Shown here one piece after another: positions 5,831-33,236 of a DNA stretch of 64,000 bases (its first letter is position 1; each line of letters opens with the position of its first letter). The notes under the pieces were generated by a model, which did no database searches, was not told the DNA's origin, and saw nothing but the letters and a program-made list of their open reading frames with translations. The stretch lies in contig JAVKCD010000019.1 in the NCBI GenBank assembly GCA_040222855.1, positions 230,912-294,911 on the forward strand, written 5' to 3'. Made by a program: the position numbers and the translations under genes. Source of the DNA: Phycisphaeraceae bacterium (lineage in GTDB: Bacteria > Planctomycetota > Phycisphaerae > Phycisphaerales > Phycisphaeraceae).

Positions 5831-6721
5831 TCAGTTGCCCGCAATAAAGTACTGCTCGAGCGTTTCACCACGGGTATCTAGCCAGCTATAAAGATCCGCG
5901 ATCCCGCGGACATTCGTCGGGTCATCTCTGAAAACCTGATTAAACGAAAGAAAGCTCCCGCTTCCATCACCGTACGCCACATTCACACCCTTGCCCTTGT
6001 GCGCTCCGAGACTGTCATTGAACTGATGCTGACACCAGGACAGCGCCAAAGCCGCGTTGTCGCTGAATCGCAGTGAGCCGAAGTAAACATTCTTCTCGTT
6101 GACGCCCTGAGATGCCGCGTATCCCGACTTCTGCTCTTTCGATACCATCTCAGACCGGTTCGCATAGGTGCCAAGCCCCACCCGCTTGCCGGGATTGAAC
6201 CCCAGCGTCCCCCAGTTCTGAGCGCCGAAGTTCTCATCCGCCTCCGTGACCTGCCTGGCCTCACCCGAGCCACCAAAGGCGCTGACCTCTGCGACCGCAG
6301 GCTCAGGACAGAAGAAAAACTCAAGGTCCCCGATGTACTGCTCCTCGTACAGAATTCCGTGCCCCGAAGGACCGCCCACGTTCCAGAGAAAGACGCCCCC
6401 AACCTGCGTACTCCCGGGAAGATCCCGGTCTGCTGAATAGACGTTCAATGTGTACCCCCCAAAGGTCACGTTATAAGTCCGTGGCTGAGTATCCAGTGGC
6501 GGCACCGTCGCCACAAACATTTTATCGTTGTAGTCCACCGCATAAGCATTTCGTGCGATCGCAACCTGCCGCTGATTCGACAGGCACTGAATCGACCGCG
6601 CACTGTCACGCGCCGCGCCCAACGCCGGCAGCAGAATCCCGATCAACAGGGCGATGATCGAGATCACCACCAGCAGTTCGATCAGTGTGAAGCCTCGGCC
6701 AACATGAGATCGATGGTCCAT
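5831..6721 (-). CDS. Prepilin-type N-terminal cleavage/methylation domain protein (DUF1559-like)
   Basis: [34 protein letters not shown]-terminus and a C-terminal ...NVAYGDGS... motif. I took the start at ATG 6719-6721 ([15 protein letters not shown]); the track ORF extends to 6763. Confidence 0.85.
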
Positions 6722-6759
6722 GACAGAGTCCTTGCCGTCTGGGTAATTACAGACAGTCA

Positions 6760-7839
6760 TCATGCCCGCCGACGCAACGCGGCCAGCACACCGAGCCCGA
6801 GCAAGGTCACCCCCGCTGGTTCCGGAGCCGCGGCCGTCGAGCCGAAGTTGCTCGCCAGCGTCGAGAGATCGATCAGATCAACCGCGCCATCGAGATTAAA
6901 GTCCCCCTGATCCCAGAACGCGCCGGAAGTTGTGCCGAAGTTCGACGCCAGCGTCGAGAGATCAATCAGATCAACCGAGAAATCCAAGTTCGCGTCCCCG
7001 CCGAACGTCCCGTAGGCATCGGTCACCCACAGCAACGCGTCCTCCACCGTGATATCCCCATCCGTGTTGAAGTCATCCTCGCCCAGCGGATCATTCCCAA
7101 TGATCGAAACCATGTACTGCAGATCACTCAACCCTAGCGAAGAGCTGGCGTCAAAGTCTCCCCGCTGGAGGCTTGTCACCGTCTCACCCGCGAGGAGCGG
7201 CCGGCCATGCTCAGTCTCATACGCCCACTGCGTAATGATGAACTCGCCCAGACCGTTGCCGGTCGGCGGAGTGTTGATCTGGAACTCGATCCAGCCATAG
7301 CGAAGCATCCGATTGCCGAACGCATCATTTTCGCCCTGGAAAGACACTCCGATCTTCGCCGTCAGTGACTCACCATCCGGAACATAGAACTCACCGGTCT
7401 GCTCACCTCGCAGCGCCAGAGTCCCACGGAAGTCCGTACCAATAGTCCCGACCGTCAGCGGGCTGATCGCGTCGCCATTCTCCAACTTCGACACCATCGG
7501 GTAGGTCTCGGTCTGCTCGCTGCTCGTGCCAGCAAAATACGTAACTTCCTCGACCGTACCGTTGAGCACGACGGTTCCAGGAAAGCCCCGAATCGCGACG
7601 CTGTAATAGGTCGAAAAATCGGGCGCAAACCAGTGATTGACAAATACATCCCAAGGTGGCGTACCCCCCAACTCAGGATCGAAGAGCGGGAAGCCATCCA
7701 TCTCGAGCTGCTGGGTGAAGCCGGGCATCACCGCGATCGGCTCTTCAAGCACCACATGATCGATCTCGGCAAATGTCGATCCAGCACCGAGCGCAGTAGC
7801 CAAAACCACGCCCAAAAACACAGAAGGACGCATCAACAT
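6760..7839 (-). CDS. Secreted protein of unknown function with dockerin-like repeats and a PEP-CTERM anchor
   Basis: Signal peptide from ATG 7837-7839 ([24 protein letters not shown]). It has an internal YGWIEF...[10 protein letters not shown] signature, two GD(A/F)[17 protein letters not shown] repeats, and [22 protein letters not shown]. Confidence 0.75.
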
Positions 7840-8216
7840 GATGAGGGTTCTCCAGACCCGGTCACCCGCACACACGGCTCCGGGTTTCTAGTGGATAGCA
7901 GGCCGAGAACGCTTACTACTTAGCGGCTCGTAGCACTGCGAGTATACCCCCGGATTGATGCCAATCCAGCGCATGACCTCATAACGATGACCCAGCCCGA
8001 ATCTTATAGAAGAATGGGCGGTTCGATGGCATTCTCTCACTTACCGCTCTTGCCCGGGTTCAACCGCAACGTGGGCAGTCGAGCCAAAACCGCTCAGATT
8101 CCCTTCTGCTGGCCCTTGACCGGGAAACGAACGGGCGTCATTCTTAGCTACCCGCAGCAGCGACCTATCGTGCTGCGCCACCGCCTGCCCACCCCTTCGA
8201 AGAGGAGAAACCGACC

Positions 8217-8849
8217 ATGTCCCATCGTGACAGCGATCACGCCCTGCAGAACCGCCTGATGACCTATTCCCTCGCCGCTGGTGCCTCGGCTCTTGGCCTT
8301 GCCGGTCAGAGCGCCGACGCTCAGATCGTCTACTCCGGCGTCCAGGACATCGCCATCAGCCAGTCCAGCTCGCAGGACCTCAACCTCGACGGCGACGCCT
8401 ACAACGACATCCTGCTCAAGAACTACGTCTTCGGCGGGAACTACCAGGGAGCCACCGTCAACTTCTTCCCCGGCAAGGTCGTCGGCTTCTTCTCCGGTCT
8501 CGCTTACGCCAGCGCCCTCTCGGCAGGCGACCCGATCGACGCAGCCGCCACCGCAGGCGGTCCCTTCGCCGTCTCGCTGGCCTATGCCAACAACCCCAAC
8601 TCGGAGTTCGACAACGCCACCAGCGCTTACATCGGCCTCGAGTTCCCGATCAACGCCACAAGCCACTTCGGCTGGATCCGCGTAACGATCGACAATGCCG
8701 CAGGCACCTTCGTCATCAACGACTGGGCCTACGAGAGCACCCCGGGCGCTGGCATCGCCGCCGGTGCCATCCCCGAGCCCGGTGCCCTTGGCCTGCTCGC
8801 CGCCGGTGCCTTGGGTCTGGCTGGCTACCGAGGTCGCCGCACGGCCTGA
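8217..8849 (+). CDS. PEP-CTERM sorting-domain protein of unknown function
   Basis: GAGGAG Shine-Dalgarno 8-13 nt upstream, a signal peptide, an FGWIRV...FVINDWAYESTPG signature and an IPEPGALGLLAAGALGLAGYRGRRTA tail. Confidence 0.8.
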   Translation: MSHRDSDHALQNRLMTYSLAAGASALGLAGQSADAQIVYSGVQDIAISQSSSQDLNLDGDAYNDILLKNYVFGGNYQGATVNFFPGKVVGFFSGLAYASALSAGDPIDAAATAGGPFAVSLAYANNPNSEFDNATSAYIGLEFPINATSHFGWIRVTIDNAAGTFVINDWAYESTPGAGIAAGAIPEPGALGLLAAGALGLAGYRGRRTA

Positions 8850-8904: not shown

Positions 8905-8940
8905 TGTCGTTTGTCGCTCAACCCTGCCGATGACCCTGAC

Positions 8941-10938
8941 ATGACCCACGACAAACCCCGCCGCGTCCTGCTGATCGGCTGGGACGCCGCCGACTGGCGC
9001 TTCGCCGATCCGCTGATCGAGCAAGGGCAGATGCCCACGCTCGCCAACCTCCGCGCTCGTGGGGCATGGGGCAAGATGGCCACCCTCCAGCCCATGCTCT
9101 CGCCGATGCTCTGGACCTCCATCGCCACCGGCAAGACCGCGCGCCACCACGGCATCTGCGGGTTCACCGAACCCATACCCGATGGCTCGGGCATCCGCCC
9201 GGTCTCCAGCGTCTCCCGTCAGTGCCAGGCCATCTGGAACATGCTCACGCAACGCGGCAAGCGATCCCACGTCGTCGGCTGGTACGCCTCTCACCCCGCC
9301 GAACCGATCCTCGGGACGATGGTCTCTAACCAGTTCGAGCTGCCCGTCGGCCCGCCCGACAAAGCCTGGCCAGCCCCGCCCGGTTCGATCCACCCCCCTG
9401 AACGCGCCGAGGAACTCAAGCAGCTCAGAGTTCACCCCGCTGAGATCACCGCCGAAGCAATCCTGCCTTTCGTGCCTGATGCCGCGCGTGACGCCCGGCG
9501 AGAGGGCAACCGCATCGGCAAGCTCCGCACGCTGCTGGCACAGACCGCCTCGATCCATACCATCGCCACCCACCTCATTCAGCAGGATGACTGGGACCTG
9601 ATGGCGGTCTACTACGAAGGCATTGATCGCTTCGCCCACGAGTTCATGGAGTTCCACCCACCCCGAATGGACCACGTCAGCGACGACGACTTCCATGCCT
9701 ACCAGCACGTCATGACCGGCGTCTACCGCTTTCACGACATGATGCTCCAGACCCTGCTGACCCTCGCTGGTGAGGACACCGCCGTCATCCTCATCAGCGA
9801 CCATGGCTACCTCGATGACCAGCGTCGGCCGGACCCCGAGAAAGCAGGGCCTGTTGACTGGCACCGGCCCTTGGGCATCGCCACCATCACGGGATCGGGC
9901 ATCCAATCCGGGGGGCGGCTCATGGGTCCGACCCTCCTCGACGTGACACCAACGATCCTCAGCCTGCTGGGCCTGCCGATCGGCCTGGACATGCCCGGAC
10001 GCGCCTGGGCCGAAGCGATGACCCAAGCCCCGAAGACGGAACGCATCCTCACCTGGGAGAACCCAACCACCCCCGATGGCCGGCACCCAGCCGATATTGA
10101 AGAAGATTCAGAATCTGCCCGCGCAGCACTCCAGCAACTCATCGACCTTGGCTATGTAGAGGCACCCTCCGAGGACACCGAAACAACCGTCCGCGACACC
10201 CGGGCTCACAATGATCTGACACTTGCACGCTCCATGCTCAGCTCCGGCGACACCGCCGAGGCACTCGCGGTCATGGAAAGACTTCCTCAGTCTTTCCGCG
10301 ACGACCCCGGGATCCGCAGCGCCATCGCCCAATCACGACTCTTGTTAGGTGACCTCAAGGGCTGCAGAACAGAACTCGATGCGATGGCCAATGACCCCGA
10401 CGCCACCGCAAGACGTGAACTACTCCTTGGCGCGATCGCCCTGCGCGAAGCCGACAAGCCACTAGCCCTAAAGCACTACGAAGCCGCCTTGTCAGCACAA
10501 CCCGACGATGCCGCCCTGCTGAATCGCCTCGCTGGCCTTCACCTTCTGCTCGATCAACTCGACCGTGCTGAGACACTCTATCGCCTGGTCGTTGAGCTGA
10601 TGCCCGAGGACGCCACCGCCTGGGACGGTCTGGCCGAAACACTCCTTCGCCTGGATCGCCCTGCAGAAGCACTCGAAGCGGCTCTCGAAGCCGTTGGCCT
10701 CGCCTTCGGGCTCGCCCGCGCCCACCTCCGACTGAGTAAAGCCCTGTTCGCCGTCGGCGACCCGGAGCGCGCCGCCGAAGCCGTCGAGGCCTGCCTGCTC
10801 CGCTCACACGGTTTTGTTGCCGCCCATCAGCACGCTGCCAAGGTCTACGAACAACTGAATCAGCCAGAGAAGGTCTCCGAGCAAGAAAGGCTCACCACGG
10901 AGGCCAAGATCGCCCAGTCCCGATCGGCCAGAAGCTGA
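8941..10938 (+). CDS. Alkaline-phosphatase-superfamily (type I phosphodiesterase/nucleotide pyrophosphatase-like) protein fused to C-terminal TPR repeats
   Basis: The N-terminal core (VLLIGWDAADW...MLSPMLWTSIATGK...HGI; ISDHGY) is typical of AlkP-core enzymes. The last ~250 aa are Ala/Leu-rich TPR-like helices. I took the start at ATG 8941 (MTHDKPRR); the track start 8911 is TTG and falls just after the terminator hairpin. Confidence 0.75.
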   Translation: MTHDKPRRVLLIGWDAADWRFADPLIEQGQMPTLANLRARGAWGKMATLQPMLSPMLWTSIATGKTARHHGICGFTEPIPDGSGIRPVSSVSRQCQAIWNMLTQRGKRSHVVGWYASHPAEPILGTMVSNQFELPVGPPDKAWPAPPGSIHPPERAEELKQLRVHPAEITAEAILPFVPDAARDARREGNRIGKLRTLLAQTASIHTIATHLIQQDDWDLMAVYYEGIDRFAHEFMEFHPPRMDHVSDDDFHAYQHVMTGVYRFHDMMLQTLLTLAGEDTAVILISDHGYLDDQRRPDPEKAGPVDWHRPLGIATITGSGIQSGGRLMGPTLLDVTPTILSLLGLPIGLDMPGRAWAEAMTQAPKTERILTWENPTTPDGRHPADIEEDSESARAALQQLIDLGYVEAPSEDTETTVRDTRAHNDLTLARSMLSSGDTAEALAVMERLPQSFRDDPGIRSAIAQSRLLLGDLKGCRTELDAMANDPDATARRELLLGAIALREADKPLALKHYEAALSAQPDDAALLNRLAGLHLLLDQLDRAETLYRLVVELMPEDATAWDGLAETLLRLDRPAEALEAALEAVGLAFGLARAHLRLSKALFAVGDPERAAEAVEACLLRSHGFVAAHQHAAKVYEQLNQPEKVSEQERLTTEAKIAQSRSARS

Positions 10939-11038: not shown

Positions 11039-12403
11039 ATGACCACCACACCCACCACCACCCATACGCTCAGCGTCTTTGAGACCGCCCGAGATACCAA
11101 AGACCCGATTGCCCCCGCCAGCCAACGCCCCTTTCAAACCCAACGCCCCGAGGCCTTGATCGATATCTCCATCGACCCAAGCCAGCGGTTCCAACCGATC
11201 ATCGGCTTTGGCGGGGCACTCACCGAAGCCTCCGCCATCAACTACCAGTTGATGACACCCGACAACCGCGAAGCCTTTCTCAAGCATTATTTTTCCTCGA
11301 CCGAAGGCCACGGCTACACCCTCTGCCGAACCCACATCCATGCCTGCGACTTCTCCCGCGGCCACTACACCTACGTCGATGATGGCGACACCTCCCTCAA
11401 CTCCTTCTCCCTCGACGCCGACCGGCAAACCCTTCTTCCCTTCATCCACGACGCCATCGCCGCCAGCGACCGCCCCATCAGCTTCCTCGCCTCACCCTGG
11501 AGCCCGCCTCCGTGGATGAAAACCACCGGCCGCATGGTCCGAGGCGGAAAACTCCTCCCCGAACACCGCCAGACCTGGGCCGACTACTACGTCCGCTACA
11601 TCAACGCCATGCGCGATGAAGGCATCGACATCTGGGGCGTCACCGTCCAGAACGAGCCCGACGCCGAGCAAACCTGGGAATCCTGCATCTACACCGCCGA
11701 AGACGAACGCGACTTCGTCCGCGATCACCTCGGACCGACCCTCGAAAAAGCCGGCCTTGGCGACATCAAGATCATCATCTGGGACCACAACCGCGACCGA
11801 CTCTTCGACCGCGCCTCGGTTGTCTACGACGACCCGCAAGCCAGCCACTACACCTGGGGCGCCGGCTTCCATTGGTACTGCGGAGACTTCTTCGAGAACC
11901 TCACCCGCACCCACGACGCCTACCCCGACAAGCACCTGATCTTCACCGAAGGCTGCCAGGAAGGCGGACCCCACGACGGCTCCTGGGCCACCGGCGAACG
12001 CTACGCCCGCTCCATCATCAACGACCTCAACCGCTGGACCGAGGGCTGGATCGACTGGAACCTCCTCCTCGACGAGACCGGCGGCCCGAATCACGTCAAC
12101 AACCTTTGCTCCGCCCCCATCCTCTACGACCGCCCCACCGGCGTCATGAAGCTCCAGAGCTCCTACCACTACCTGGGCCACTTCGCCCGCTTCATCCAGC
12201 CCGGCGCGACCCGCATCGGCTGCAACCCCAGCCACGCCGACCTCCCCGCCACTGCCGTCGAGAACCCCGACGGCTCCCTGGCCGTCGTCATCCTCAACAC
12301 CGGCGAATACGCCCTGAGCTACCGCTTGGAACTCGATGGCCGCTTCGCTGCTGGCTCAGTCCCCGCCCACGGCATCCAGACGCTCACCACACCAGCCAGC
12401 TAA
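11039..12403 (+). CDS. Glycoside hydrolase family 30 (glucosylceramidase-like), no signal peptide
   Basis: GFGGALTEASA, ASPWSPPPWMK, GVTVQNEP (acid/base Glu), IFTEGC (nucleophile Glu) and WIDWNLLLDETGGPNHVNN motifs. Confidence 0.88.
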   Translation: MTTTPTTTHTLSVFETARDTKDPIAPASQRPFQTQRPEALIDISIDPSQRFQPIIGFGGALTEASAINYQLMTPDNREAFLKHYFSSTEGHGYTLCRTHIHACDFSRGHYTYVDDGDTSLNSFSLDADRQTLLPFIHDAIAASDRPISFLASPWSPPPWMKTTGRMVRGGKLLPEHRQTWADYYVRYINAMRDEGIDIWGVTVQNEPDAEQTWESCIYTAEDERDFVRDHLGPTLEKAGLGDIKIIIWDHNRDRLFDRASVVYDDPQASHYTWGAGFHWYCGDFFENLTRTHDAYPDKHLIFTEGCQEGGPHDGSWATGERYARSIINDLNRWTEGWIDWNLLLDETGGPNHVNNLCSAPILYDRPTGVMKLQSSYHYLGHFARFIQPGATRIGCNPSHADLPATAVENPDGSLAVVILNTGEYALSYRLELDGRFAAGSVPAHGIQTLTTPAS

Positions 12404-12449
12404 ACGCCCAGAGCCTTCCAACCTCTCCATCCTGACAAATAACCGGGCT

Positions 12450-12481
12450 GGCCATGAAACAAAAATGTTTGTTTCATGGCC
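12450..12481 (+). terminator. Perfect 14-bp inverted repeat (hairpin or operator) in the AT-rich spacer after GH30
   Basis: ggccatgaaacaaa-aatg-tttgtttcatggcc; the arms 12450-12463 and 12468-12481 are exact reverse complements. There is no clean T-run, so a terminator role is uncertain and it could be a protein-binding palindrome. Confidence 0.4.
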
Positions 12482-12500
12482 AAGTTTATCTTGTTTTACA

Positions 12501-12529
12501 TTGACATCAGCGATTGTGATGTCATTATT
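12501..12529 (+). promoter_or_regulatory. Candidate sigma70-type promoter for the LacI/GH5 operon, with an embedded 7-bp inverted repeat
   Basis: TTGACA at 12501-12506, with CATTAT/ATTATT 16-17 bp downstream. The inverted repeat gacatca(12503-09)/tgatgtc(12517-23) lies in the spacer. This is the most AT-rich stretch of this part of the window. Confidence 0.35.
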
Positions 12530-12588: not shown

Positions 12589-13656
12589 ATGGCCACTGTC
12601 CGCGACATCGCGAGTTCCCTTGGCGTTTCGCCGGCGACGGTGTCGCGGTCGCTGAATAACGCGCCGGAGGTCAGTGACAAGCTCAAGCGGCGGGTGATCG
12701 ATGAGGCCAAGCGGATCGGGTACGTCGCCAGCCGGAGGACGCGGACGCGCACGGGGACCGTGGGGCTGATGTTTGTGAATGAGACGTCGGGGCCGATGTT
12801 CTCGGGGTACGACGCGATCATCTGGTCGGGCGTGGCCCGGGCGGCGGCGGCGGCGGGGTACGCGGTGTCGGTGTTCGACCCGCGCCAGCGGCGCGAGAAC
12901 GAGTCCCTCGACAGCCTGGCGACGCGGCTGCACCTCGACGGGCTCTTGGTGCGCAACGACTGGCACTCGCGCGAGTTTGTGCGCGAGATCGCCGAGACCG
13001 GGATGCCATCGGTGGTCATCGCGGATCGGTTTGAGGACAAGTCGGTCAACTACGTCTGCTGCAACTCTTACGCGCCGACGCGGCAGGCGATCGAGCATCT
13101 GCTTCACCTCGGGCACCGGCGGATCGCGCTGTGCCATCACGTTCTGGTGGACACCGATCACCGCGACCGCATCGACGCATACGAGGCCGCGATGACCGAC
13201 GCGGGGTTCGGGCCGGAAGAACAGATGCGCATCGCCATCCGCGCTGATGTTGACGGGGGTGGGGCGGCGCTGAGCCGGTTCCTGGCGATGCCGGACCCGC
13301 CTACGGCGATTTTCTTCACCGACCCCCCCGCCACCGTCGGGGCGCTGCGTCGAGCGGTGGAGCTTGGGCTGAGTGTTCCCGAGGACCTTTCGATCATTGG
13401 GGTGGACGACGAGGACCTGCGGCGGATGACGCACCCGGTCTATACCGCGGTGTGCCAGGACGCCGCGGAGATCGGCTATCAGGCGGCGCGGTGGCTGTGC
13501 CGGGCGCTGTCCGGGACCACCAGCTCGACCGAATCCGACGCCCGACTGCACCTTGAGCTGGACGCTGTGCTGGAGATCAACAAATCCACCGCGGCCCCGC
13601 CAGCGCGGGCGCTGCGGATGTCCCCCAACGGCCATCGCATCGAAAACCATGCATAA
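12589..13656 (+). CDS. LacI family transcriptional regulator
   Basis: N-terminal HTH (MATVRDIASSLGVSPATVSRSLNN...V....RV...A..IGY) followed by a periplasmic-binding-protein-like sugar-binding core. Confidence 0.9.
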   Translation: MATVRDIASSLGVSPATVSRSLNNAPEVSDKLKRRVIDEAKRIGYVASRRTRTRTGTVGLMFVNETSGPMFSGYDAIIWSGVARAAAAAGYAVSVFDPRQRRENESLDSLATRLHLDGLLVRNDWHSREFVREIAETGMPSVVIADRFEDKSVNYVCCNSYAPTRQAIEHLLHLGHRRIALCHHVLVDTDHRDRIDAYEAAMTDAGFGPEEQMRIAIRADVDGGGAALSRFLAMPDPPTAIFFTDPPATVGALRRAVELGLSVPEDLSIIGVDDEDLRRMTHPVYTAVCQDAAEIGYQAARWLCRALSGTTSSTESDARLHLELDAVLEINKSTAAPPARALRMSPNGHRIENHA

Positions 13657-19084: not shown

Positions 19085-20926
19085 ATGGGTTTGTTTGACC
19101 CTACCTCCTCCTTGTGGCTCCGGGCGTTAGCGCTCGGGGCCATCTTGTTGCCTGGTGATGCGCTGGCGATCGGCCCGGTGCGGAGTTGGGTAACGCGTGG
19201 TGACCAGTCGTTGTTGCTGGCGGAGCAGACGCCGGTGTTTTTTGGTGCAAGTGGGTCGGCGCCGTTGACGGTGGTGGTCGATCCTGGGGTGACGTATCAG
19301 ACGATGGAGGGGTTTGGTGCGGCGATGACGGATGCGTCGTCGATCATTTTGAATCAGCGGATGAGTTCGTCAGCGCGGGATGCGTTGATGACGGATTTGT
19401 TTTCGCCGGTGGACGGGATTGGGCTGAGTTATTTGAGGCTGCCGATGGGGGCATCGGATTTTTCGACGAGTCATTACACGTATCACGATCTGCCGGTGGG
19501 TCAGAGTGATGTGACGCTGGGGTCGTTTTCGATTGCGGCGGATGAGGTGGATCGGATTCCGTTGTTGCAGCAGGCGGAGGCTTTGAATCCGGGGTTGCAA
19601 CTGATGGCGTCGCCTTGGTCGGCGCCGGCGTGGATGAAGAACAATCAGTCGCTGTATGGGGGTTCGCTGCGGTCGCAGTATTTCGGCGCTTATGCGTTGT
19701 ACTTCAAGAAGTTTATTGAGGCGTATGGGGCGCATGGGTTGGAGATCGATACGCTGACGGTTCAGAACGAGCCGCTGCATAGCAACAGTAGTTATCCGAC
19801 GATGTTGATGAGTACGTTTCAGCAGAGCACTTTTATCGGGGATCATTTGGGTCCGATGCTGGCTGGGAGTGGGATCGAGACGGGGATATTGGCTTATGAC
19901 CACAACTGGGATGAGTGGAACTACCCGTTGGTGGTGATGAATGATCCGGAGGCGGACCCGTTTATTGTCGGTGCGGCGTTTCACGGTTATGCGGGGGTGG
20001 TGGAGAATCAGTCGTTGTTGCAGGGGTTTCGGCCGGACAAGGGGATTTACTTCACGGAGATCTCGGGGGGTGATTTTGCGCCGAACTTCAATAACAACCT
20101 GATCTGGAACTTTGACAATCTGATCATCGGGGCGACGCGGAACTGGTCGAAGACGGTGATCATGTGGAATCTGGCGTTGGATGAGGATCATGGCCCGCAT
20201 CTGGGGGGTTGCAGTGATTGTCGGGGTGTGGTGACGGTGGATTCGGAGACGGGTGAGGTGACGCGGGAGGTTGAGTATTACTCGTTGGCGCACGCGAGTA
20301 AGTTTGTGCAGCCGGGTGCGGTGCGGATTGATTCGACGACGTTTGAGGGTCAGTTGGAGACGGTGGCGTTTATGAATCCGGATGGGTCGGAGGTGTTGAT
20401 TGCGATGAACCCGACGCAGTCGACGAAGAGTTTTGTGGTGGAGCGAGATGGTCAGGTGTTTACGTACAGTCTGGCGCGGCGGTCGGTGACGACGCTGACA
20501 TGGTCGCCTTTTGAGGGGCTGATCGTGGGGGATGTGAATCTGGATGGGGTGGTGGATGATCTGGATATTGATGAGTTATTTGCATCGCTGGGGAGCGCGG
20601 AGGGTCGGTTTGATGTGGAGGGAGATGGCGGGTTGGCGGACGAGGGGGATGTGGATGTGCTGATTGAAGATGTATTGGGGACGCGTCGTGGGGATGCGAA
20701 TCTGGATTTGCGGGTGGATTTGATTGATCTGTCGCTCTTGGCGGTGAACTTCCAGACGTTTGGTCCGTGGGCGGAGGGGGATTTTTCGGGTGATGGGATC
20801 GTGAATCTGGTGGACTTGTCGTTGCTGGCGGCGAACTTTGGGTATGTGGGTCAGGCGGTGCCGGAGCCGGTGGTGGCGGGGTGGCTGGTTGGGTTGGTGG
20901 TGATGGGGCGGCGGCGCGCGTCGTAA
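19085..20926 (+). CDS. Secreted glycoside hydrolase family 30 with a dockerin-like module and a PEP-CTERM anchor
   Basis: MEGFGAAMTDASS, MASPWSAPAWMK, LTVQNEP, IYFTEISGG and WNLALDEDHGPHLGGC motifs. The C-terminus matches the same dockerin-like repeats plus VPEPVVAGWLVGLVVMGRRRAS. Confidence 0.85.
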   Translation: MGLFDPTSSLWLRALALGAILLPGDALAIGPVRSWVTRGDQSLLLAEQTPVFFGASGSAPLTVVVDPGVTYQTMEGFGAAMTDASSIILNQRMSSSARDALMTDLFSPVDGIGLSYLRLPMGASDFSTSHYTYHDLPVGQSDVTLGSFSIAADEVDRIPLLQQAEALNPGLQLMASPWSAPAWMKNNQSLYGGSLRSQYFGAYALYFKKFIEAYGAHGLEIDTLTVQNEPLHSNSSYPTMLMSTFQQSTFIGDHLGPMLAGSGIETGILAYDHNWDEWNYPLVVMNDPEADPFIVGAAFHGYAGVVENQSLLQGFRPDKGIYFTEISGGDFAPNFNNNLIWNFDNLIIGATRNWSKTVIMWNLALDEDHGPHLGGCSDCRGVVTVDSETGEVTREVEYYSLAHASKFVQPGAVRIDSTTFEGQLETVAFMNPDGSEVLIAMNPTQSTKSFVVERDGQVFTYSLARRSVTTLTWSPFEGLIVGDVNLDGVVDDLDIDELFASLGSAEGRFDVEGDGGLADEGDVDVLIEDVLGTRRGDANLDLRVDLIDLSLLAVNFQTFGPWAEGDFSGDGIVNLVDLSLLAANFGYVGQAVPEPVVAGWLVGLVVMGRRRAS

Positions 20927-21039: not shown

Positions 21040-24000
21040 CTATCGGCGTTGGGAAGCGATGGGGATGGTGGTTTGATGGGGGAGGGACGGGAAGGTGATG
21101 GTTTGTTCGCCGTGGCCGGAGAGGTCGGGGAGGATGAGTTTGAAGCCGTTGGGGGGTGTGGCGTCGCCGGCGGCGGAGAAGTGGAGGGTGTCGCCTTGGC
21201 GAACGAGGTTGTAGGCGATGTGTCCGTAGCGGGTGGGTGCGTTGTGGACGCGGACGCCTGGGGCGTCGAGCCATTCGGGTTTGAGTCCGAGTCCGAGGAG
21301 GAGGGTGTTGTTGGGTTCGTCTTCGGTGACGAAGATGGCGCGGGCGGCGTTGACGAAGCCGGCGCCGACCCAGGTGTGGGGCATGTCGCCTATGAAGCGG
21401 GGTGCGCGGTCGTCGCGGTAGGCGATCTCGGCCCAGTGGAGCCATCCGGCGGGGAGCTGGTCCTGTGCGAGCCAGTCGAACATGGCGTGGGCGCGTTGGC
21501 GGTGTCCGGTGCGGAGCATGGTGGTGATGACGCGGAGTTCGTAGGGGGTGTAGTCGAACCAATCGCGGTCGTCGGAGATGCGGAGGGCAAAGTCGTTCCA
21601 GTAGCGCTCGAAGGTGTTGGCGAGGAGTTGTTGGGGGAGGTCTTTGGTGAGTTCGCCGATGGAGATGGCGATGGCGGTGGAGGGCGGGTCGAAGTCGCCG
21701 AGTTCGACGCAGCCGGGGATGAAGTTGATGCCTTGCTCTTTGGCGGCCATCTCGATGGAGCGGACGAGGGCGGCTTTGTGGTCATCGGCGAGTTGCTGGA
21801 AGTGATTGGCGTCGTCGTGGAAGCCGAGTTGTCGGGCGATGGCTGCGGCGTCGTCGAATCCGCGGACGACGAAGACGTTGTCCCAGTAGCTGTGCATGGG
21901 TTTTTCGGAGTAGCCTTCGTGGCTGATGGATTCGGGGACGAGTCCTTCGTATGCGGTGCCGATGTATTGGGGGGTGAGTCGCTGGTTGCGGAGGTTTTCC
22001 ATGTAGGCGACGCCAGCGCGGATGTGGTGGTAGTGCTCGCGGGCGAAGTCTTCATCGTGGGTGTGTTCGAGGAGGAGTCTGGCGAGGTAGATGAGTTGTC
22101 CGGTGGAGTCGTGTTCGTCGACGGGGTCGGGTCCGCGGTGGTCGACGACGCAGGGGACTTTGCCGTTGTCGTACTGATAGGGTGCGTACCAGGCGAAGTA
22201 GTCGGCGACGGCGTTGGCCTGGCCCATGTTGATGAGGGCTTTGCCGGTGAGTGCGCCATCGCGGATCCAGGAGCGTTGGTAGGTTCGTGAGCCGGGTTGG
22301 ATTCGGACGCCGTCCATGTTGATGAGGATGTAGGCGAGTTGGGCGTTGAGGCTGTCGAGAATGAGCTTGGCTGAGGGGTGAGCCACCTCGAACATGGGTG
22401 GTCCGAGGAGGGTTTGCCATGCGGCAGCGTGGGCTTCGAGTCGTTTGTCGAAGGGTTGTTCGGCGAGGGCGAGCTTGATGGCTGAGGCGTCGGGCATGCG
22501 GGTCGGTGGGCCGAGGGGTGTGGCGATGATGATGTCGGTGTGGGCATCGGGGAGGAGTGATCTCTTGAAGGTCATGGCGGCGGAGGTGAAGCCTTGATCA
22601 TCGTGAGCGGCGGTGTTGGCAGGGTAGGTGTCGGCGGCGATCCATTCGGAGGCGTCGCCGGCGGTGAGGTTGGCGGTGGCGAGTTTGTCGGGGTCGTTGA
22701 TGGCGATGACGGGTGTTGTGTGGTTGATGAGGAGGGTATTTTGTTGTGGTCGGGTTTCGATGGTGTGGATGGGGCTGTGTCCGCCATCGAGGTTGAGGGT
22801 CTGCCAGGGCGGGAGGACCTGGAAGGGTCGGATGGCGATGGCGAGTGTGGCGTCGATGGTCTGGTTGGAGAGGTTGTGCCAGCGGTAGCGGGTGAGGAGG
22901 AGTTCCTGGCCGTCGATGACTTCGGCGAGGGGTGTGATGTCGAGTTGCATGTCGGTGTGGTGGCGCTTGACGGTGCTGATGGGGAGGTGATCGCGGGCGA
23001 GGGATTGGGTGTGGGTGGCGTCGGCCCAGGTGAGGAGGTTGTTGTTTCGGTGGATGAAGGGTTCGAGGGTGAAGGAGCCGATGTCGGGTTCGATGACGCC
23101 ATGCTCGCTGATGAGGGCTTCGTGGTTGCTGGCGGGGTTGCCGGCGACGTTCCAGAAGACCTGGCGGTTTTCGAGGGTCATGGGCCAGTGACCGCGGGGC
23201 TGTTTGGCGGCGTAGGCTTTGAGCAGGGTGTTGGCGGGGTGCGCGGCTTCGACGGGGAGGAGTTGGATGGCAGCGAGGTTGACACCGGCGGCGCGGTGGG
23301 TGGCGTTGGTGGTGATGCGGAGGTGGCGTGCTTCGGACTCGGGTGCGAGGAAGGCGTCGGTCTCGCCGTTGCCTTGTTCGGTGGTGGCGAGGGTTTGCCA
23401 GGTGTTGGCGTCGCGGGAGGTTTCGAGGGTGTACTGGGTGGGGAATCGCTGGTCGTGCCAGTTGAGGAGGATGGCGGAGAACTCGCGGGGTTCGGAGAGG
23501 TCGAGGTTGATGGTGTGCTGGTCGCCTGGGGTGGTCAGTAGGTTGAGTTGGGTGGGGTCGGCGACGACGGAGGGTGTGCGGCGTTCGGGGGTGAGAGCGG
23601 TGCGTGAGGAGGCGATGAGTTTGAGGGGTCCGGTGGCGGGTGGTGGTGTGGCTTCGAGTTTGAGGTTGTCGATCCAGATGGTGCCTTTGCCGCCGGTGGA
23701 GGCGGTGACGACGATTTCTATTGCGCCGAGTTGGTCGTGGATTTTCTCGCTGCCTGCGGGCCCCCATGCGAAGGAGAAGTGGCGACGTTTGAGTCGGATG
23801 GTCTGGGAGGTGGTGGGGAAGTTGATGTTGCGACGGTTGACCCACCAGACGTTTTCGTAGGAGGTGTCGAGGAGTTTGACTTCGAGGGTGTTGGGTGGGA
23901 TGTCGCCTTCGAGGTCGAAGCTGAGGGTGAAGTGTCCGGGGAGTTCGAGGGGCGGGTCGAAGGGGATCCTGGTGACGGCGTAGCCGGAGCCTGCGGCGAA

Positions 24001-24189
24001 GTTGACATCGACTCGGAGTCGGGTGTCGCCTGTGGCGGTGGTTTCGTAAGCGAGGGATTGTTCGACGCCGTCGGCGGGGTGTGCGGACCAGGGTTGGTCG
24101 GCACCGTCGAAGAGAGTGGTAGCGAGGGTGGGTAGGGTGAGGAGGAGCGAGAGGAGAGGCGCGAGGCGGAGAGGGAGGGGTCTTGGCAC
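21040..24189 (-). CDS. Large secreted glycoside-hydrolase candidate: N-terminal beta-sandwich/discoidin-like domains plus a GH15-like (alpha/alpha)6 catalytic region
   Basis: Signal peptide MPRPLPLRLAPLLSLLLTLPTLA. An F5/8-type-C-like segment is present (FSAILLNWHDQRFPTQYTLETSRDANTWQTLA...ARHLRITT). The C-terminal region has YQRSWIRDGALTG...VDEHDSTGQLIYL..., reminiscent of GH15/glucoamylase-like folds. Confidence 0.7.
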   Translation of the reverse strand: MPRPLPLRLAPLLSLLLTLPTLATTLFDGADQPWSAHPADGVEQSLAYETTATGDTRLRVDVNFAAGSGYAVTRIPFDPPLELPGHFTLSFDLEGDIPPNTLEVKLLDTSYENVWWVNRRNINFPTTSQTIRLKRRHFSFAWGPAGSEKIHDQLGAIEIVVTASTGGKGTIWIDNLKLEATPPPATGPLKLIASSRTALTPERRTPSVVADPTQLNLLTTPGDQHTINLDLSEPREFSAILLNWHDQRFPTQYTLETSRDANTWQTLATTEQGNGETDAFLAPESEARHLRITTNATHRAAGVNLAAIQLLPVEAAHPANTLLKAYAAKQPRGHWPMTLENRQVFWNVAGNPASNHEALISEHGVIEPDIGSFTLEPFIHRNNNLLTWADATHTQSLARDHLPISTVKRHHTDMQLDITPLAEVIDGQELLLTRYRWHNLSNQTIDATLAIAIRPFQVLPPWQTLNLDGGHSPIHTIETRPQQNTLLINHTTPVIAINDPDKLATANLTAGDASEWIAADTYPANTAAHDDQGFTSAAMTFKRSLLPDAHTDIIIATPLGPPTRMPDASAIKLALAEQPFDKRLEAHAAAWQTLLGPPMFEVAHPSAKLILDSLNAQLAYILINMDGVRIQPGSRTYQRSWIRDGALTGKALINMGQANAVADYFAWYAPYQYDNGKVPCVVDHRGPDPVDEHDSTGQLIYLARLLLEHTHDEDFAREHYHHIRAGVAYMENLRNQRLTPQYIGTAYEGLVPESISHEGYSEKPMHSYWDNVFVVRGFDDAAAIARQLGFHDDANHFQQLADDHKAALVRSIEMAAKEQGINFIPGCVELGDFDPPSTAIAISIGELTKDLPQQLLANTFERYWNDFALRISDDRDWFDYTPYELRVITTMLRTGHRQRAHAMFDWLAQDQLPAGWLHWAEIAYRDDRAPRFIGDMPHTWVGAGFVNAARAIFVTEDEPNNTLLLGLGLKPEWLDAPGVRVHNAPTRYGHIAYNLVRQGDTLHFSAAGDATPPNGFKLILPDLSGHGEQTITFPSLPHQTTIPIASQRR

Positions 24190-24223: not shown

Positions 24224-26509
24224 TCAGTGCGAGCGGCGGCGGAGCATCAGGAGGGCGAGCAGCGGTAGGGCTGCGGGCTCGGGGATGGTGATGCTCTGGC
24301 CGAAGTTGGAGGCGAGGAATGAGAGGTCGATGAGGTCGATGAGGCCGTCGGTGTTGACGTCGCCCTGGGCCCATCCGCCGGTGCTGTCGAAGTTGGTGGC
24401 GAGGATGGAGAGGTCGATGAGGTCGACGGTTCCGGAGAGGTCGGTATCGCCGAAGAGGGCTCCGGTGGCGCTTCCGAGGGAGGTGTCGACGAGGGTGGTG
24501 ACGAGGGTTTCGTAGTCGGCAGCGGTGACGGCGCCGTCGGTGTTGAGGTCGTACATGAGGGCGGAGTCGGCGACGAGGAGTCCGAGTTGGGAGGTGAGTT
24601 GGTCGATGTCGTCGGCGTTGACGAGTCCATCGCGGTTGAAGTCGCCGGGGACGAGGGGGAGGAAGACTTTGTCGAGGGCGGCGGCGATGTCGGGGAGGTC
24701 GGCGAAGGCGGCGGCGTCGTTGTAGAGGTATTCGAAGAGGGCCATGGTGGAGAGCGCGGTGTTCCAGAGGTCGTGGAAGGCCCGGACCTCGGAGGGTGTG
24801 TTGGCACCGGTGGTCCAGCGGGCAGCGTCGGAGAGTCCGAAGGGGCCTTCGAGGTTATTGATGAGGTGGTGTCGGATGGCGGCGTCGGCGGCGGCTTCAT
24901 CGCCTAAGAGTGCGAATGCGGCGGACCATGGCATGAAGAGTTCGGGGCTGCCCTGGTCGTTGTAGGGGGAGTACTGTTCGTAGGAGGAGCCATCGGTGTC
25001 GGCGCCGGCGTCGGGCTGGAGGAAGAAGGGTCTGCCGATGGAGGCGAAGTAGGCGGCGACTTCCTGCTGGTAGAGGGTGGCGTTGCGTTGCGGGTTCCCG
25101 GCGAGGGAGGGGATGGGGTAGGTGTCGTTTCCGCGGTCGGAGGTGTCGGCGAAGAGGGGCATGAGCCATTGGGTGAAGGGTGGTCGGAACTGCGAGAAGG
25201 TGGAGACGAGGTGCTCGTTTTCGGGATCAACGAGGTGGTCTTTGGTGCGGAAGATGGCGGAGTGGTATTGCTCGGTGATGGGGACGTGGTTGTCGGTGGA
25301 GAGGTGGGCGGCGAGTGAGATGAGCCAGGGTTCGCCGGAGTAGGAATCGTAGGTTCCCGGGGTCATCTGGTTGGTGTCAGTTTTGTAGGCGAGGCTCCAG
25401 CCACGGGTGGGTCCGGTGGTGTCGGAGAAGGCGTCCCAGTCGAATCGGTTCTGGAGGGTGTTGATGTCGTCGCGGAGGGTGGTGGAGGTTTCGGGTCGGT
25501 TGGCGAAGCGGTGGAGGCCGAGGGAGAGGAAGGCGGTGTCGATGTTGGTTTCTTCGGGGACGAGATCGTTGGCGAGGGTGGTCCAGTTGAAGTAGCGGCC
25601 GGGGGCGTGGTCGGCGGAATCCATGATGGTGTTGAAGGAGTTGACGATGGTGTTGATGTACTGGTCGGCGGTGGCGGGGTTGACCCAGCCGTTGTCGACG
25701 GCGCGGGGGAGCATGGTGACGACGGCGGCGGTGGCGTTGATGGCGCCGTGTCCTGAGGTGGTGGAGTGGACGGGGATGAGGCCGTTGACGCGGTTGCGTG
25801 ATCCCCAGAGGGCGTCCCACTGTCGTTTGGCGAGTCGTTCGGCGAGGGTGTGGGTGGGTGTGGTGGCGACATCGAGTGGCCCGCCGGGTTCGACGAGACT
25901 CATGTCGTCGATGTAGACGGAGCCGTTGACGGCGGTGCCCTGGTTGGCCTGGATGACGAGGTCGAGGGACTTGGTGCGGTCGAGGTAGTTGGTTTCGGTT
26001 CCGGGCTGGATGCCGGAGAGGGACCAGCCGGGAGCGGTGAGGTCGAGGGGGATGGAGACCTGCTGCCAGGTGCCGGAGGCGGGGATGACGGAGGTGTAGG
26101 AGGCGATGGCTCCGGCGCCGTCGCGGTAGTCTTTGATTTCGAAGTTGAGGGAGAAGGGGTCGCCGGTGCTGTTGCGGAGTTGGAAGTCGACGGACTGGTA
26201 ACCGGCGAGGCTGCGGCTGGTGGCGAACTCGCCGGTGGGTCCGTAGGGGGCGAGGGGGTGCTGGACGAAGCCGATGTCGTTTTGTGGGATGGAGGTTGCG
26301 ATGCGGTAGCCGTAGCGGCCGGAGGTGCGGACGGCGGTGGATCGTGCGAGGGAGGTGTTGAAGGTGAGGGGTGATCCGCCGAAGCGGTTGATGAAGGGCT
26401 CAACGGTCTCGCCGTCCCAGAAGGGGACGATTGCGAGGTCATCGGCGGGCGCAGCGACTCCGAGGAGGAGGGTAAGTGCGATGGGGATGGTGGGGCTTGA
26501 TGACGCCAT
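24224..26509 (-). CDS. Secreted (alpha/alpha)6-like glycoside-hydrolase candidate with an N-terminal CBM-like domain, a dockerin-like module and a PEP-CTERM anchor
   Basis: Signal peptide. The central region ends with ...LEGPFGLSDAARW...FHDLWNTALSTMALFEY, analogous to the GPYGF.DAFN...IDQG tail of the putative-glucoamylase/GH144 superfamily seen in 33237..34586. The C-terminus is GDFNRDGLVNADDID ... GDTDLSGTVDLIDLSILATNF ... GDVNTDGLIDLIDLSFLASNFG ... IPEPAALPLLALLMLRRRSH. Confidence 0.7.
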   Translation of the reverse strand: MASSSPTIPIALTLLLGVAAPADDLAIVPFWDGETVEPFINRFGGSPLTFNTSLARSTAVRTSGRYGYRIATSIPQNDIGFVQHPLAPYGPTGEFATSRSLAGYQSVDFQLRNSTGDPFSLNFEIKDYRDGAGAIASYTSVIPASGTWQQVSIPLDLTAPGWSLSGIQPGTETNYLDRTKSLDLVIQANQGTAVNGSVYIDDMSLVEPGGPLDVATTPTHTLAERLAKRQWDALWGSRNRVNGLIPVHSTTSGHGAINATAAVVTMLPRAVDNGWVNPATADQYINTIVNSFNTIMDSADHAPGRYFNWTTLANDLVPEETNIDTAFLSLGLHRFANRPETSTTLRDDINTLQNRFDWDAFSDTTGPTRGWSLAYKTDTNQMTPGTYDSYSGEPWLISLAAHLSTDNHVPITEQYHSAIFRTKDHLVDPENEHLVSTFSQFRPPFTQWLMPLFADTSDRGNDTYPIPSLAGNPQRNATLYQQEVAAYFASIGRPFFLQPDAGADTDGSSYEQYSPYNDQGSPELFMPWSAAFALLGDEAAADAAIRHHLINNLEGPFGLSDAARWTTGANTPSEVRAFHDLWNTALSTMALFEYLYNDAAAFADLPDIAAALDKVFLPLVPGDFNRDGLVNADDIDQLTSQLGLLVADSALMYDLNTDGAVTAADYETLVTTLVDTSLGSATGALFGDTDLSGTVDLIDLSILATNFDSTGGWAQGDVNTDGLIDLIDLSFLASNFGQSITIPEPAALPLLALLMLRRRSH

Positions 26510-26569
26510 CAGGTTCTCACAGCATGAACGATGGGTCGGGGGGAGGCGAGGTTCGTTCGTGAAAAGAGG

Positions 26570-27391
26570 TCAGTTGACGTTGCCGTAGGGGTGACCCCAG
26601 TTGAACCAAGGCCCGTTACCAAGGGGATCGAGGGGGGTTGGGCTGCCTTGGTAGGACTTGTATTCGCGGACGGCTTTGTATTCGCTGTGGCCGTCAAGGA
26701 AGCTCATGTTGAGTCCCTGGCCGTTGCCGTGGCGGAGGATTTCTTTGCCAGCTTCAGGCCCTGCAGGTAACGGCGTATCGAGGTCCATAGCGATGACGGT
26801 CCAGGTAGTAAGGGGCAGTGCGCTGATTCTGAAGTTCAGTACACCCTCTCCAGCGGTCGGTACATAGGTGTTGTCGTTGTACTTGTAGTCGGTGAAACGT
26901 GCTTCACCATTGACTAGGTCAATTTTACCGTTCTCGTCAGTTTTAGACTCGTACCATCCCCACCCATAGTTGTTGGTTGAGAAGATATTGGGCGAGACAA
27001 ACTGATCTCCACCGGTGCTGGATCGTTCGGCCGAGGGGCATTTGAAGGCTTCGAAGGTCCCGATATAGGGCATGATCAGGGGGATCTGGATGCCCTGCCA
27101 TGCAAACCCTATGTTGACGTTCTGACTGAACCCGCTGGGGAGCGTGATTTTGATTGCGCTTGGGAGGAAGTCCTTGTGGTCATGGGCGTAGAACTGGGCA
27201 CCGAGGGCGATCTGTCGGAGTCCGGAGAGGCACTTGACGTCTTCGGCGGTGCGTCGAGCGGCACCGAGGGCGGGGAGGAGGATGCCGATGAGGAGGGCGA
27301 TGATGGAGATGACGACGAGGAGTTCGATGAGGGTGAACCCGCCCCGCATCGGGGTCAGAGGGTTTGGGGCCGTTGAGGGGTTGGCGTCCAT
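26570..27391 (-). CDS. Prepilin-type N-terminal cleavage/methylation domain protein (DUF1559-like)
   Basis: [39 protein letters not shown]-terminus and a C-terminal GLNMSFLDGHSEY motif. Confidence 0.85.
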   Translation of the reverse strand: MDANPSTAPNPLTPMRGGFTLIELLVVISIIALLIGILLPALGAARRTAEDVKCLSGLRQIALGAQFYAHDHKDFLPSAIKITLPSGFSQNVNIGFAWQGIQIPLIMPYIGTFEAFKCPSAERSSTGGDQFVSPNIFSTNNYGWGWYESKTDENGKIDLVNGEARFTDYKYNDNTYVPTAGEGVLNFRISALPLTTWTVIAMDLDTPLPAGPEAGKEILRHGNGQGLNMSFLDGHSEYKAVREYKSYQGSPTPLDPLGNGPWFNWGHPYGNVN

Positions 27392-33233: not shown

Positions 33234-33236
33234 GGA

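Follow-up and report, generated by a model that had tools for sequence, protein, structure and literature searches.

What is the role of prepilin-type genes that lie embedded among genes for secreted hydrolases? The window analysed here, a stretch of 64,000 nucleotides from a Phycisphaeraceae bacterium (assembly GCA_040222855.1, contig JAVKCD010000019.1, positions 230,912 to 294,911), holds three such genes, which we call g1, g2 and g3. A preliminary description of this DNA had seen in them prepilin-like genes of the DUF1559 type, distributed one each over three secreted-enzyme operons, and had proposed that they serve substrate-specific roles, for instance as alternative pseudopilus subunits or in glycan handling, coupled to a nearby machine resembling a type II secretion system (T2SS). 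Our analysis confirms the observation and partly supports the interpretation. While the family itself was already known, the new element is the fidelity with which, in Phycisphaerae, each orthogroup of these genes keeps to its locus. We tentatively favour the explanation that g1-g3 encode locus-dedicated pilin-like proteins, the head of which recognises the substrate of the locus.

An invariant helix and an orthogroup-specific head

The three genes at the centre of this study are the following:

5831..6721, reverse strand: g1, a prepilin-type protein of 296 residues, with a C-terminal H-X10-DG (YGDGS)
13710..14456, forward strand: g2, a prepilin-type protein of 248 residues, with Ala at position -1 and a C-terminal H-X12-DG (YLDGH)
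26570..27391, reverse strand: g3, a prepilin-type protein of 273 residues, with a C-terminal H-X11-DG (FLDGH)

These open reading frames bear out those described earlier, and the starts at 6721 and 13710 agree with the database proteins P0226 (296 residues) and P0121 (248 residues) as well as with the leader lengths of the orthologues. The leaders of g1, g2 and g3 comprise 10, 14 and 18 residues and end in GRG, PTA and RGG, respectively, directly before the F at +1; together with E at +5 and P at +22 in all three, and with G or A at -1, this constitutes a prepilin signal, and G or A occupies position -1 in all 25 members of the three orthogroups in our alignment. The processing signal said to be common to the three proteins is indeed shared, as their mature N-terminal 28 residues are identical, and each ends in one of the related motifs YGDGS, YLDGH and FLDGH. 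In a six-frame motif scan of the window, the prepilin signature was found in g1, g2, g3 and one GspG-like pseudopilin at 43569 only.

Over their whole length, g1-g3 are 31-40% identical to one another, with most of this identity contributed by the N-terminus. Within the 28 identical codons, the three pairs differ at 12, 15 and 20 codons by synonymous changes, which rules out a recent duplication or gene conversion as the origin of the identical N-termini; their identity has thus been maintained by selection and not by recent copying. At the third positions of these codons, g1 and g2 are rich in G and g3 has nothing but C, in keeping with the strong local strand skew.

To which family do these proteins belong? 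All three pass the cutoffs of PF07963 (N_methyl; 26.0, 23.6 and 28.6 bits for g1, g2 and g3, cutoff 21.2) and of TIGR02532 (27.1, 17.8 and 26.0 bits, cutoff 16.3). The DUF1559 label given to them earlier fits g1, which scores 30.4 bits against PF07596 (DUF1559, SBP_bac_10) and thereby exceeds the gathering cutoff of 23.3, but g2 (19.1 bits) and g3 (17.1 bits) fall below it, and the alignments are limited to positions 2-31 (g1), 2-67 (g2) and 2-61 (g3) of the 268 positions of the profile, leaving most of it unmatched. The matching part corresponds to only 30-75 residues following the helix. Among the 25 orthogroup members, 18 match PF07596 at E <= 0.01, and an hhalign comparison of the 25-member profile with canonical DUF1559 proteins yields a probability of 100% over 108 columns only, ending at the CP motif. 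Membership in the H-X9-DG family is similarly partial. At a permissive E-value, TIGR04294 matches g1 with 17.0 bits, below its cutoff of 19, and does not match g2 or g3, and the spacing between H and DG is X10, X12 and X11 in g1, g2 and g3 rather than X9; however, the H, the N and the D-G are invariant or nearly so in the 25-sequence alignment. The GspG equivalog TIGR01710 reaches 30.2, 27.4 and 26.5 bits against a cutoff of 88.85, through the alpha1 helix only. Close homologues of g1-g3 carry the names of this family at JGI and NCBI, and the nearest named relatives of the proteins of the window come from Mucisphaera calidilacus and a metagenome-assembled genome of Mucisphaera sp., both Phycisphaerae. 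The window, which belongs to a marine metagenome-assembled genome related to Mucisphaera, also matches contig JAVKDK010000034.1 of assembly GCA_040222295.1. Judged by their sequences, g1-g3 are divergent members of a known but uncharacterised superfamily, the planctomycete N_methyl/DUF1559/H-X9-DG proteins, alike at both ends and differing in the middle, and they fall on its Phycisphaerae branch.

This division into conserved and variable parts is sharp. In the 25-sequence alignment, the alpha1 helix is 98% identical within and 98% identical between orthogroups, whereas identity in the head drops from 37% within to 17% between orthogroups, and in the C-terminal tail from 38% to 12%. Two Cys and one Tyr are invariant across all orthogroups, as are a His, an Asn, an Asp and a Trp near the C-terminus. 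AlphaFold2 models the full-length g3 protein with a pLDDT of 92.5 and its head alone with a pLDDT of 92.2 and a pTM of 0.88; the model predicts an alpha1 helix of about 50 residues (21-71), followed by an alpha/beta head with about 8 strands. When compared with the PDB by Foldseek, the full model retrieves only the helix of the gonococcal pilin 1ay2 (E 0.24, TM-score 0.19), and the head alone retrieves nothing significant (best E 0.54, TM <= 0.14). The name SBP_bac_10 suggests a solute-binding-protein fold, but for neither model does such a protein appear in the list of the 50 best Foldseek matches. A search of PDB sequences with the pilin-like protein likewise returned only alpha1 helices, namely those of PilA, geopilin and GspG. 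According to these predictions, the head has a confidently modelled fold without a solved relative. It is abundant in sequence space: out of 1.84 billion cluster representatives, a profile of the head alone matches 16,112 at E <= 0.001, and nearly all matches begin at residue 34-70 of proteins of 200-310 residues, which indicates that a pilin N-terminus almost always precedes the head.

Fidelity of the pilin-like genes to their loci

The gene map, for which a crude gene call was combined with Pfam and NCBIfam scans, was compared with those of Mucisphaera calidilacus, the Mucisphaera sp. genome, Poriferisphaera corsica and two larger Phycisphaerae genomes. Each of g1, g2 and g3 represents an orthogroup of its own, and the partners of each are kept across genera at 37-66% identity. 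In the window all three loci lie within 22 kb; in M. calidilacus they are found at 0.65, 1.11 and 2.85 Mb. As the partners are kept despite this separation on the scale of megabases, the pilin-like genes have travelled with their neighbours.

The g1 locus combines the pilin-like gene with a protease:

4529..5803, reverse strand: trypsin-like S1 protease, bearing a signal peptide, a dockerin-like repeat and a PEP-CTERM tail; such a protease follows the pilin-like gene throughout the g1 orthogroup
6760..7875, reverse strand: secreted protein of 371 residues, encoded upstream of g1 and bearing a dockerin-like repeat and a PEP-CTERM tail; its true start may be internal
8217..8849, forward strand: small PEP-CTERM protein of 210 residues, divergent from the g1 unit
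8911..10938, forward strand: type I phosphodiesterase with tetratricopeptide repeats (TPR), recurring near g1-type loci

The tight spacing noted before is accurate, with 38 nucleotides between the stop codon of the 371-residue protein (6760-6762) and the ATG of g1 at 6721, and 27 nucleotides between g1 and the protease gene. In the three other genomes examined (loci L005, L006 and L011), orthologues of g1 (43-63% identity) immediately precede a gene for a trypsin-like protease. Two of these loci, L005 and L006, also have a dockerin/PEP-CTERM protein upstream of the g1 orthologue and a counterpart of 205-209 residues of the small PEP-CTERM protein. The phosphodiesterase-TPR protein, of about 640-675 residues, is present near g1 in the window, L005, L006 and L011, and also in a GlcNAc-type locus of M. 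calidilacus (L093).

The g2 locus combines the pilin-like gene with a LacI-family regulator and GH5 and GH30 enzymes:

11039..12403, forward strand: GH30 protein without an obvious signal peptide, part of a conserved GH30-LacI-g2 arrangement
12449..12482, forward strand: perfect palindrome of 15 + 15 nucleotides with a 4-nucleotide loop and a T-rich tail, terminator-like, between GH30 and LacI
12501..12528, forward strand: sigma-70-like promoter TTGACA-16-CATTAT, by consensus match only, overlapping the inverted repeat TGACATCA-N7-TGATGTCA, upstream of LacI-g2-GH5
12589..13656, forward strand: LacI-family regulator, 53 nucleotides upstream of g2
14476..16839, forward strand: secreted GH5 enzyme, downstream of g2
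16924..20926, forward strand: three secreted proteins of the g2 unit, namely a protein of 201 residues with a PEP-CTERM-like tail, a protein of 489 residues with dockerin-like repeat and PEP-CTERM tail, and a GH30 enzyme with dockerin-like repeat and PEP-CTERM tail

The position of g2 between LacI and GH5 was described correctly, and a ribosome-binding site, GGGAG, lies in the 19-nucleotide gap before the GH5 start codon at 14476. Its orthologues, 37-66% identical, occur in M. calidilacus, Mucisphaera sp., a Phycisphaerae genome of 5.76 Mb and P. corsica (L012) in the order LacI, pilin-like gene, GH5 and/or a protein of about 200 residues, a protein of about 450-480 residues, and GH30. LacI is directly upstream of the pilin-like gene in all four (L003, L004, L010 and L012), and the order of the three further secreted proteins is the same in L003, L004 and L010. 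The GH5 gene is less constant, following the g2 orthologue in L004 and L012, having moved elsewhere in L003 and being absent nearby in L010. Thus, g2 tracks the locus and not one particular enzyme. Between LacI and the pilin-like gene lie 30-53 nucleotides in four genomes, as against 157 in P. corsica; the gap contains no hairpin. The palindrome before LacI contains TGAAACA...TGTTTCA, a motif that recurs upstream of LacI in the orthologous loci, and it could act as a terminator, an operator, or both; a clean palindrome shared by the regions upstream of LacI in the g2 loci was not found, only the recurring TGTTTCA/TGAAACA motif.

The g3 locus, finally, contains two predicted enzymes of beta-1,2-glucan metabolism:

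21040..24189, reverse strand: secreted protein of 1049 residues with F5/8 type C and (alpha/alpha)6 six-hairpin glycosidase-like domains
24224..26509, reverse strand: secreted protein of 761 residues, bearing a dockerin-like repeat and a PEP-CTERM tail; a counterpart follows the pilin-like gene throughout the g3 orthogroup
27473..27500, reverse strand: GC-rich hairpin with a 12-bp stem and no U-tract, just after the stop codon of the PEP-CTERM gene, upstream of g3
27519..29624, reverse strand: two secreted proteins upstream of g3, of 296 residues (PEP-CTERM) and 399 residues (dockerin-like repeat and PEP-CTERM)
29670..29799, reverse strand: control region with a promoter-like TTGACA-16-TACCAT (29799..29772) and LacI-type operators at 29759-29772 and 29670-29683
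29835-33233, reverse strand: GH94 1,2-beta-oligoglucan phosphorylase (SOGP)
33237-34661, reverse strand: GH144-type glucanase (PF10091)
34652-35650, reverse strand: LacI regulator
35699..35712, reverse strand: LacI-type operator upstream of the LacI-GH144-GH94 unit

With 47-61% identity between orthologues, this arrangement is again conserved. The M. calidilacus locus (L001) reads LacI, GH144, GH94, a protein of 378 residues, a PEP-CTERM protein, the pilin-like gene and proteins of 770 and 1042 residues, and the core is the same in Mucisphaera sp. (L007); the 5.76-Mb genome (L009) has LacI, two PEP-CTERM-type proteins, the pilin-like gene, a protein of 792 residues, GH144 with CBM9, an ABC (ATP-binding cassette) transporter and GH94. 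Counterparts of the 761-residue protein, of 765-792 residues, are found in L001, L007 and L009, and the pilin-like gene precedes this protein in every genome examined, at a distance of 60 nucleotides in the window. Among PDB sequences, the 761-residue protein has a marginal match to XCC2207 (E 0.004) and the 1049-residue protein only a marginal one to a CBM-like glucanase module. On the strength of their gene content, we regard the region 21040-35650 of the window, together with L001 and L009, as a putative conserved locus for beta-1,2-glucan utilisation.

Allowing one mismatch at most, the operator sequence TGTAARCGYTTWCA occurs at three distinct sites in the window, where 0.01 chance matches would be expected, and exclusively in the g3 locus. 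Two of the sites lie just downstream of the promoter-like site before the gene of the 399-residue protein and the third upstream of the LacI-GH144-GH94 unit, and both M. calidilacus and Mucisphaera sp. have LacI-type operators in matching positions. Is g3 then the first gene of an operon, as had been assumed? It has no operator of its own and sits within a co-directional string of genes for the 399-residue, PEP-CTERM, pilin-like, 761-residue and 1049-residue proteins, the only LacI operators and promoter-like site of which precede the first gene; against this stands the strong hairpin before g3, which recurs with different sequence at the same position after the stop codon of the PEP-CTERM gene in L001, L007 and L009 and hence in four of four genomes including the window. 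Either g3 is read through from the LacI-controlled promoter or it starts a sub-unit.

Two paralogues that were not chosen for their context fit the same picture. The first, in L006, is followed by a GH99/71-like gene, with an AraC regulator alongside. The second, P0306 of M. calidilacus, lies in L093 between ROK and GH94 genes, in a locus with GH20, SSF and glucosamine-isomerase genes, and both of its direct neighbours are cytoplasmic. The proposal of locus-specific, and in this sense substrate-specific, roles therefore finds support in the synteny between orthogroups and partners, in the conserved operators of the g3 locus and in the orthogroup-specific heads on an invariant helix.

Beyond these orthogroups, we scanned metagenomes with an alignment of the three paralogues, which yielded 80 loci, many on short contigs and mostly from other planctomycete lineages, as a family-wide contrast. 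The neighbours recorded there include 10 tandem family members, 9 small downstream open reading frames, several of them for lipoproteins, and 12 large ones. An adjacency to carbohydrate-active enzymes (CAZymes) throughout the family is not borne out, as none of 24 downstream neighbours in this sample has a glycoside hydrolase catalytic domain according to Pfam; their matches include xylose-isomerase-like barrels, PSD/PSCyt proteins, FGE-sulfatase, MFS and CBM9. Tandem arrays of 4-5 family copies are seen in L060 (7836-11719) and L084 (7974-12539). Elsewhere, a small lipoprotein of 135-170 residues follows downstream (L013, L042, L062 and L079), and a CarboxypepD_reg match is found among the 24 neighbours.

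The window also shows a very strong GC skew of sawtooth shape over positions 1-64000, independent of gene orientation. Calculated per kb as (G-C)/(G+C), it drifts from 0 to -0.31 over 1-12 kb, jumps to between +0.23 and +0.44 just after the intergenic region between GH30 and LacI (about 12.4-16 kb), and then declines in a nearly straight line, crossing 0 near 49 kb and reaching -0.31 at 64 kb. A skew of the same magnitude is seen in related Phycisphaerae loci (L001, L004 and L012), with a sign flip in P. corsica at about 8 kb, just upstream of LacI-pilin-GH5; replication, inversion and assembly are possible causes.

Substrate recognition and competing explanations

How might such proteins work? 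In the explanation we favour, the class III (prepilin) signal and the invariant 28-residue alpha1 helix would serve as a common handle, presumably cut by prepilin peptidase after the G or A, which would anchor the protein in the cytoplasmic membrane and offer it to an assembly platform of the T2SS or type IV pilus (T4P) type. Displayed on this handle would be the orthogroup-specific head of about 200 residues. Each gene would be co-transcribed with one set of hydrolases, g2 and g3 under control of the LacI regulator of their locus, and the head would bind the polymer of the locus or its oligomers, held at or across the envelope on a pilin stalk. Substrate could thereby be captured near the PEP-CTERM-anchored enzymes and the route of uptake, in a manner resembling the archaeal bindosome or the 'fishing fibre' model. 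It is the combination of invariant handle, locus-specific head, co-location and probable co-regulation that suggests a recognition module working through a shared pilin-processing and assembly route. We favour recognition of the substrate because g2 tracks its locus rather than GH5, because P0306 is flanked by genes for cytoplasmic proteins, because a minor pseudopilin of the window carries CBM4_9 (see below), and because the bindosome (PMC3047682) and the fibre uptake model (PMC5394234, PMC12673574) provide precedents.

Several observations weigh against this explanation. The invariant polar residues (two Cys, Y, H, N, D-G and W) look structural, so that they do not pinpoint a binding site, and the Foldseek matches listed include neither a pilin head nor a solute-binding protein, CBM, lectin or cohesin. 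A function confined to glycan handling does not fit g1, which is tied to a protease and not to a glycan enzyme. Since a classical ABC solute-binding protein is encoded at the locus of the 5.76-Mb genome, the pilin-like protein does not just take that role for the transporter. Neither a secretin nor a prepilin peptidase was found among the window genes scanned. The synteny sample comprises 3-5 genomes per orthogroup, all of them Phycisphaerae, and arrangements outside this group differ, with tandem arrays and small lipoprotein partners. Finally, no RNA run holds the locus; only two DNA runs, from marine or seawater metagenomes, hold part of it, with 6-7% of its words.

An alternative, which corresponds to the preliminary description, is that g1-g3 are cargo-specific pseudopilin adaptors. 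After processing, the protein would enter the tip or body of a T2SS pseudopilus, and its head would select the neighbouring hydrolase or hydrolases for transport across the outer membrane. A candidate machine is encoded in the window:

35805..41499, reverse strand: half of a T2SS/T4P-like platform, with T2SSB-like, PilN-like, GspF and GspE genes and unassigned genes
41496-43313, reverse strand: STAS-domain protein and PAS histidine kinase, flanked by the GspE gene on one side and by the divergently oriented pseudopilin operon on the other
43548..47498, forward strand: five-gene pseudopilin operon with GspG-like, GspH-like, third pseudopilin, N_methyl + CBM4_9 and 441-residue proteins
44968-46176, forward strand: the minor pseudopilin of this operon, an N_methyl protein of 402 residues carrying CBM4_9 (E 5e-10)

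The STAS protein and the histidine kinase may regulate this machine, and the CBM4_9 pseudopilin suggests a glycan-binding pseudopilus or pilus tip. T2SS pseudopilins contact substrates. The presence of a GspE/F platform and a G-H-I-J-K-like pseudopilin set in the window would suit an adaptor, as would the position of g1-g3, each 19-60 nucleotides upstream of a large hydrolase with a signal peptide, and the constancy with which g1 precedes the protease and g3 the protein of about 770 residues in every genome examined; moreover, an adaptor accommodates proteases as well as glycosidases. However, the coupling to the cluster at 35.8-47.5 kb is not supported. Its adjacency to the g3 locus is not conserved, being absent in M. 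calidilacus, an arrangement that rules out a conserved physical link, and its own GspG-like protein has an alpha1 helix strongly unlike that of g1-g3. Furthermore, the g2 orthologue is followed in L003 and L010 by the protein of about 200 residues and not by GH5, P0306 lies between cytoplasmic ROK and GH94 proteins, and the neighbours of the pilin-like genes already bear PEP-CTERM sorting tails. To our knowledge, pseudopilins dedicated to individual cargoes are without precedent. We consider the role of a cargo adaptor unlikely.

Quite unlikely, too, is that the proteins do not polymerise at all but remain membrane-anchored periplasmic accessories, using the prepilin signal for export and anchoring only, with the head acting as sensor, chaperone or inhibitor. 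This reading gains from the behaviour of Tuwongella proteins combining N_methyl with SBP_bac_10, which, unlike plain pilins, are found in detergent- and SDS-soluble membrane fractions (PMC8567305), and from the essentiality of two of the 68 paralogues in Planctopirus (PMC10632474), which fits housekeeping roles in the envelope; also, g1-g3 have no major pilin or machine of their own linked to them. The conservation of the 28 alpha1 residues at 98%, including E5 and P22, goes far beyond the needs of a simple anchor, though, and suggests that the helix contacts a shared machine or is constrained by packing.

Could the association with these loci be fortuitous, an expanded family landing anywhere and three of its members ending up by chance in an island rich in CAZymes? 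The family is very large, with its 16,112 head clusters; the region of 4.5-35 kb forms one such island, so that the three adjacencies within the window are not independent; and the neighbours in the metagenome sample are heterogeneous. Yet orthologues at 37-66% identity keep their neighbours in 3-5 genomes each despite relocation over megabases, gaps are short and genes co-directional, the LacI-type operators are conserved, and both paralogues not selected for context are also found in glycoside-hydrolase loci, all of which makes the absence of a locus-specific function very improbable, and we disfavour it.

Nine signal-peptide proteins between 4529 and 29624 end in a PEP-CTERM tail, one of them in a VPTP variant, and in six of the nine this tail is immediately preceded by a single copy of a dockerin-like repeat, GDFNxDGxVDLxDLSxLAxNFG; no exosortase gene was seen among the annotated genes of the window. 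That the heads are cohesin-like anchors, which bind this repeat and tether the neighbouring proteins to the envelope, would account for the presence of several proteins ending in repeat and tail at each of the three loci, and for the lack of a cohesin gene among the same annotated genes, but is very improbable, since the repeat is near-uniform across loci while the heads are locus-specific (17% identity), the partners in L093 and L012 have no dockerin matches, and Foldseek returned no cohesin-like match.

Relation to known systems

The DUF1559/H-X9-DG proteins are the largest paralogue family of many planctomycete genomes and have no assigned function. In Planctopirus they form the largest paralogue group, with 68 copies, two of them essential (PMC10632474), and Tuwongella has 91 copies, for which flanking by signal-peptide genes has already been remarked (PMC8567305). 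Functional characterisation is also lacking for the CAZyme gene clusters of Planctomycetota, in which roughly one gene in three is unassigned (PMC11131199); in the limited literature searched, we found no paper linking the family to such loci. Our analysis pairs members of the family with predictable substrates: g3 with beta-1,2-glucan through GH144 and GH94, g2 with a beta-glucan through GH5 and GH30, P0306 with a GlcNAc-type locus through GH20 and GH94, and g1 with a secreted protease. As the lineage in which these pairs are found has a cultured and fully sequenced representative, Mucisphaera calidilacus Pan265 (PMC8882080), a substrate-specific role is directly testable, and the head, lacking a solved relative, presents a good structural target.

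With the planctomycete N_methyl + DUF1559/H-X9-DG family, g1-g3 share the prepilin signal and its LLPA..AAR continuation, the C.SN.RQ motif, the Cys pair, the CP motif and the C-terminal RH...N..F.DG(H/S). They differ from it in that their central head is specific to lineage and orthogroup, and in their occurrence as one copy per hydrolase locus. With the T2SS pseudopilins (GspG/H/I/J/K) and type IVa pilins they have in common the class III signal with F1, E5 and P22 and the long alpha1 helix; however, their head, roughly double the size, finds no structural counterpart among pilin or pseudopilin heads, and the disulfide connects alpha1C with the alpha-beta region instead of forming a C-terminal D-region. 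In contrast to those of T2SS pseudopilins, their genes lie in catabolic loci rather than in the operon of the machine.

A functional parallel is offered by the Sulfolobus bindosome, in which sugar-binding proteins are made with class III signals and depend on a pilus-like system (Bas) for their assembly (PMC3047682). There, as here, a pilin-type signal is found on extracytoplasmic proteins encoded with sugar-utilisation genes, which in Sulfolobus are substrate-specific (PMC3047682). But whereas the archaeal proteins are the solute-binding proteins of ABC transporters, the g3 head has no such fold in its model, and the three loci of the window contain no ABC transporter, one being present only in L009; the bindosome is thus a functional analogy and not a homologue.

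For planctomycetes, fibres have been proposed to mediate glycan uptake (PMC5394234, discussed in PMC12673574). A bolder extension of our preferred explanation, which we put forward as a doubtful one, is that in Phycisphaerae, and perhaps in Planctomycetota more widely, the expanded family represents the counterpart of SusD or solute-binding proteins, with substrate-specific heads on one pilin stalk and a single retractile or piston-like machine of the T2SS/T4P type capturing polymers into the periplasm. If true, it would supply the molecular basis of the long-discussed fibre-mediated uptake of macromolecules in planctomycetes, with one head gene per catabolic locus. The SusD-like and surface glycan-binding proteins of Bacteroidota differ from g1-g3 in sequence, in fold, in anchoring, which relies on a lipoprotein in place of a pilin helix, and in their partner, the TonB-dependent SusC, and binding by g1-g3 is proposed only. 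What they appear to have in common with g1-g3 is the genetic layout, in which each polysaccharide locus has a non-catalytic gene of its own that is regulated together with the enzymes and diversified according to substrate.

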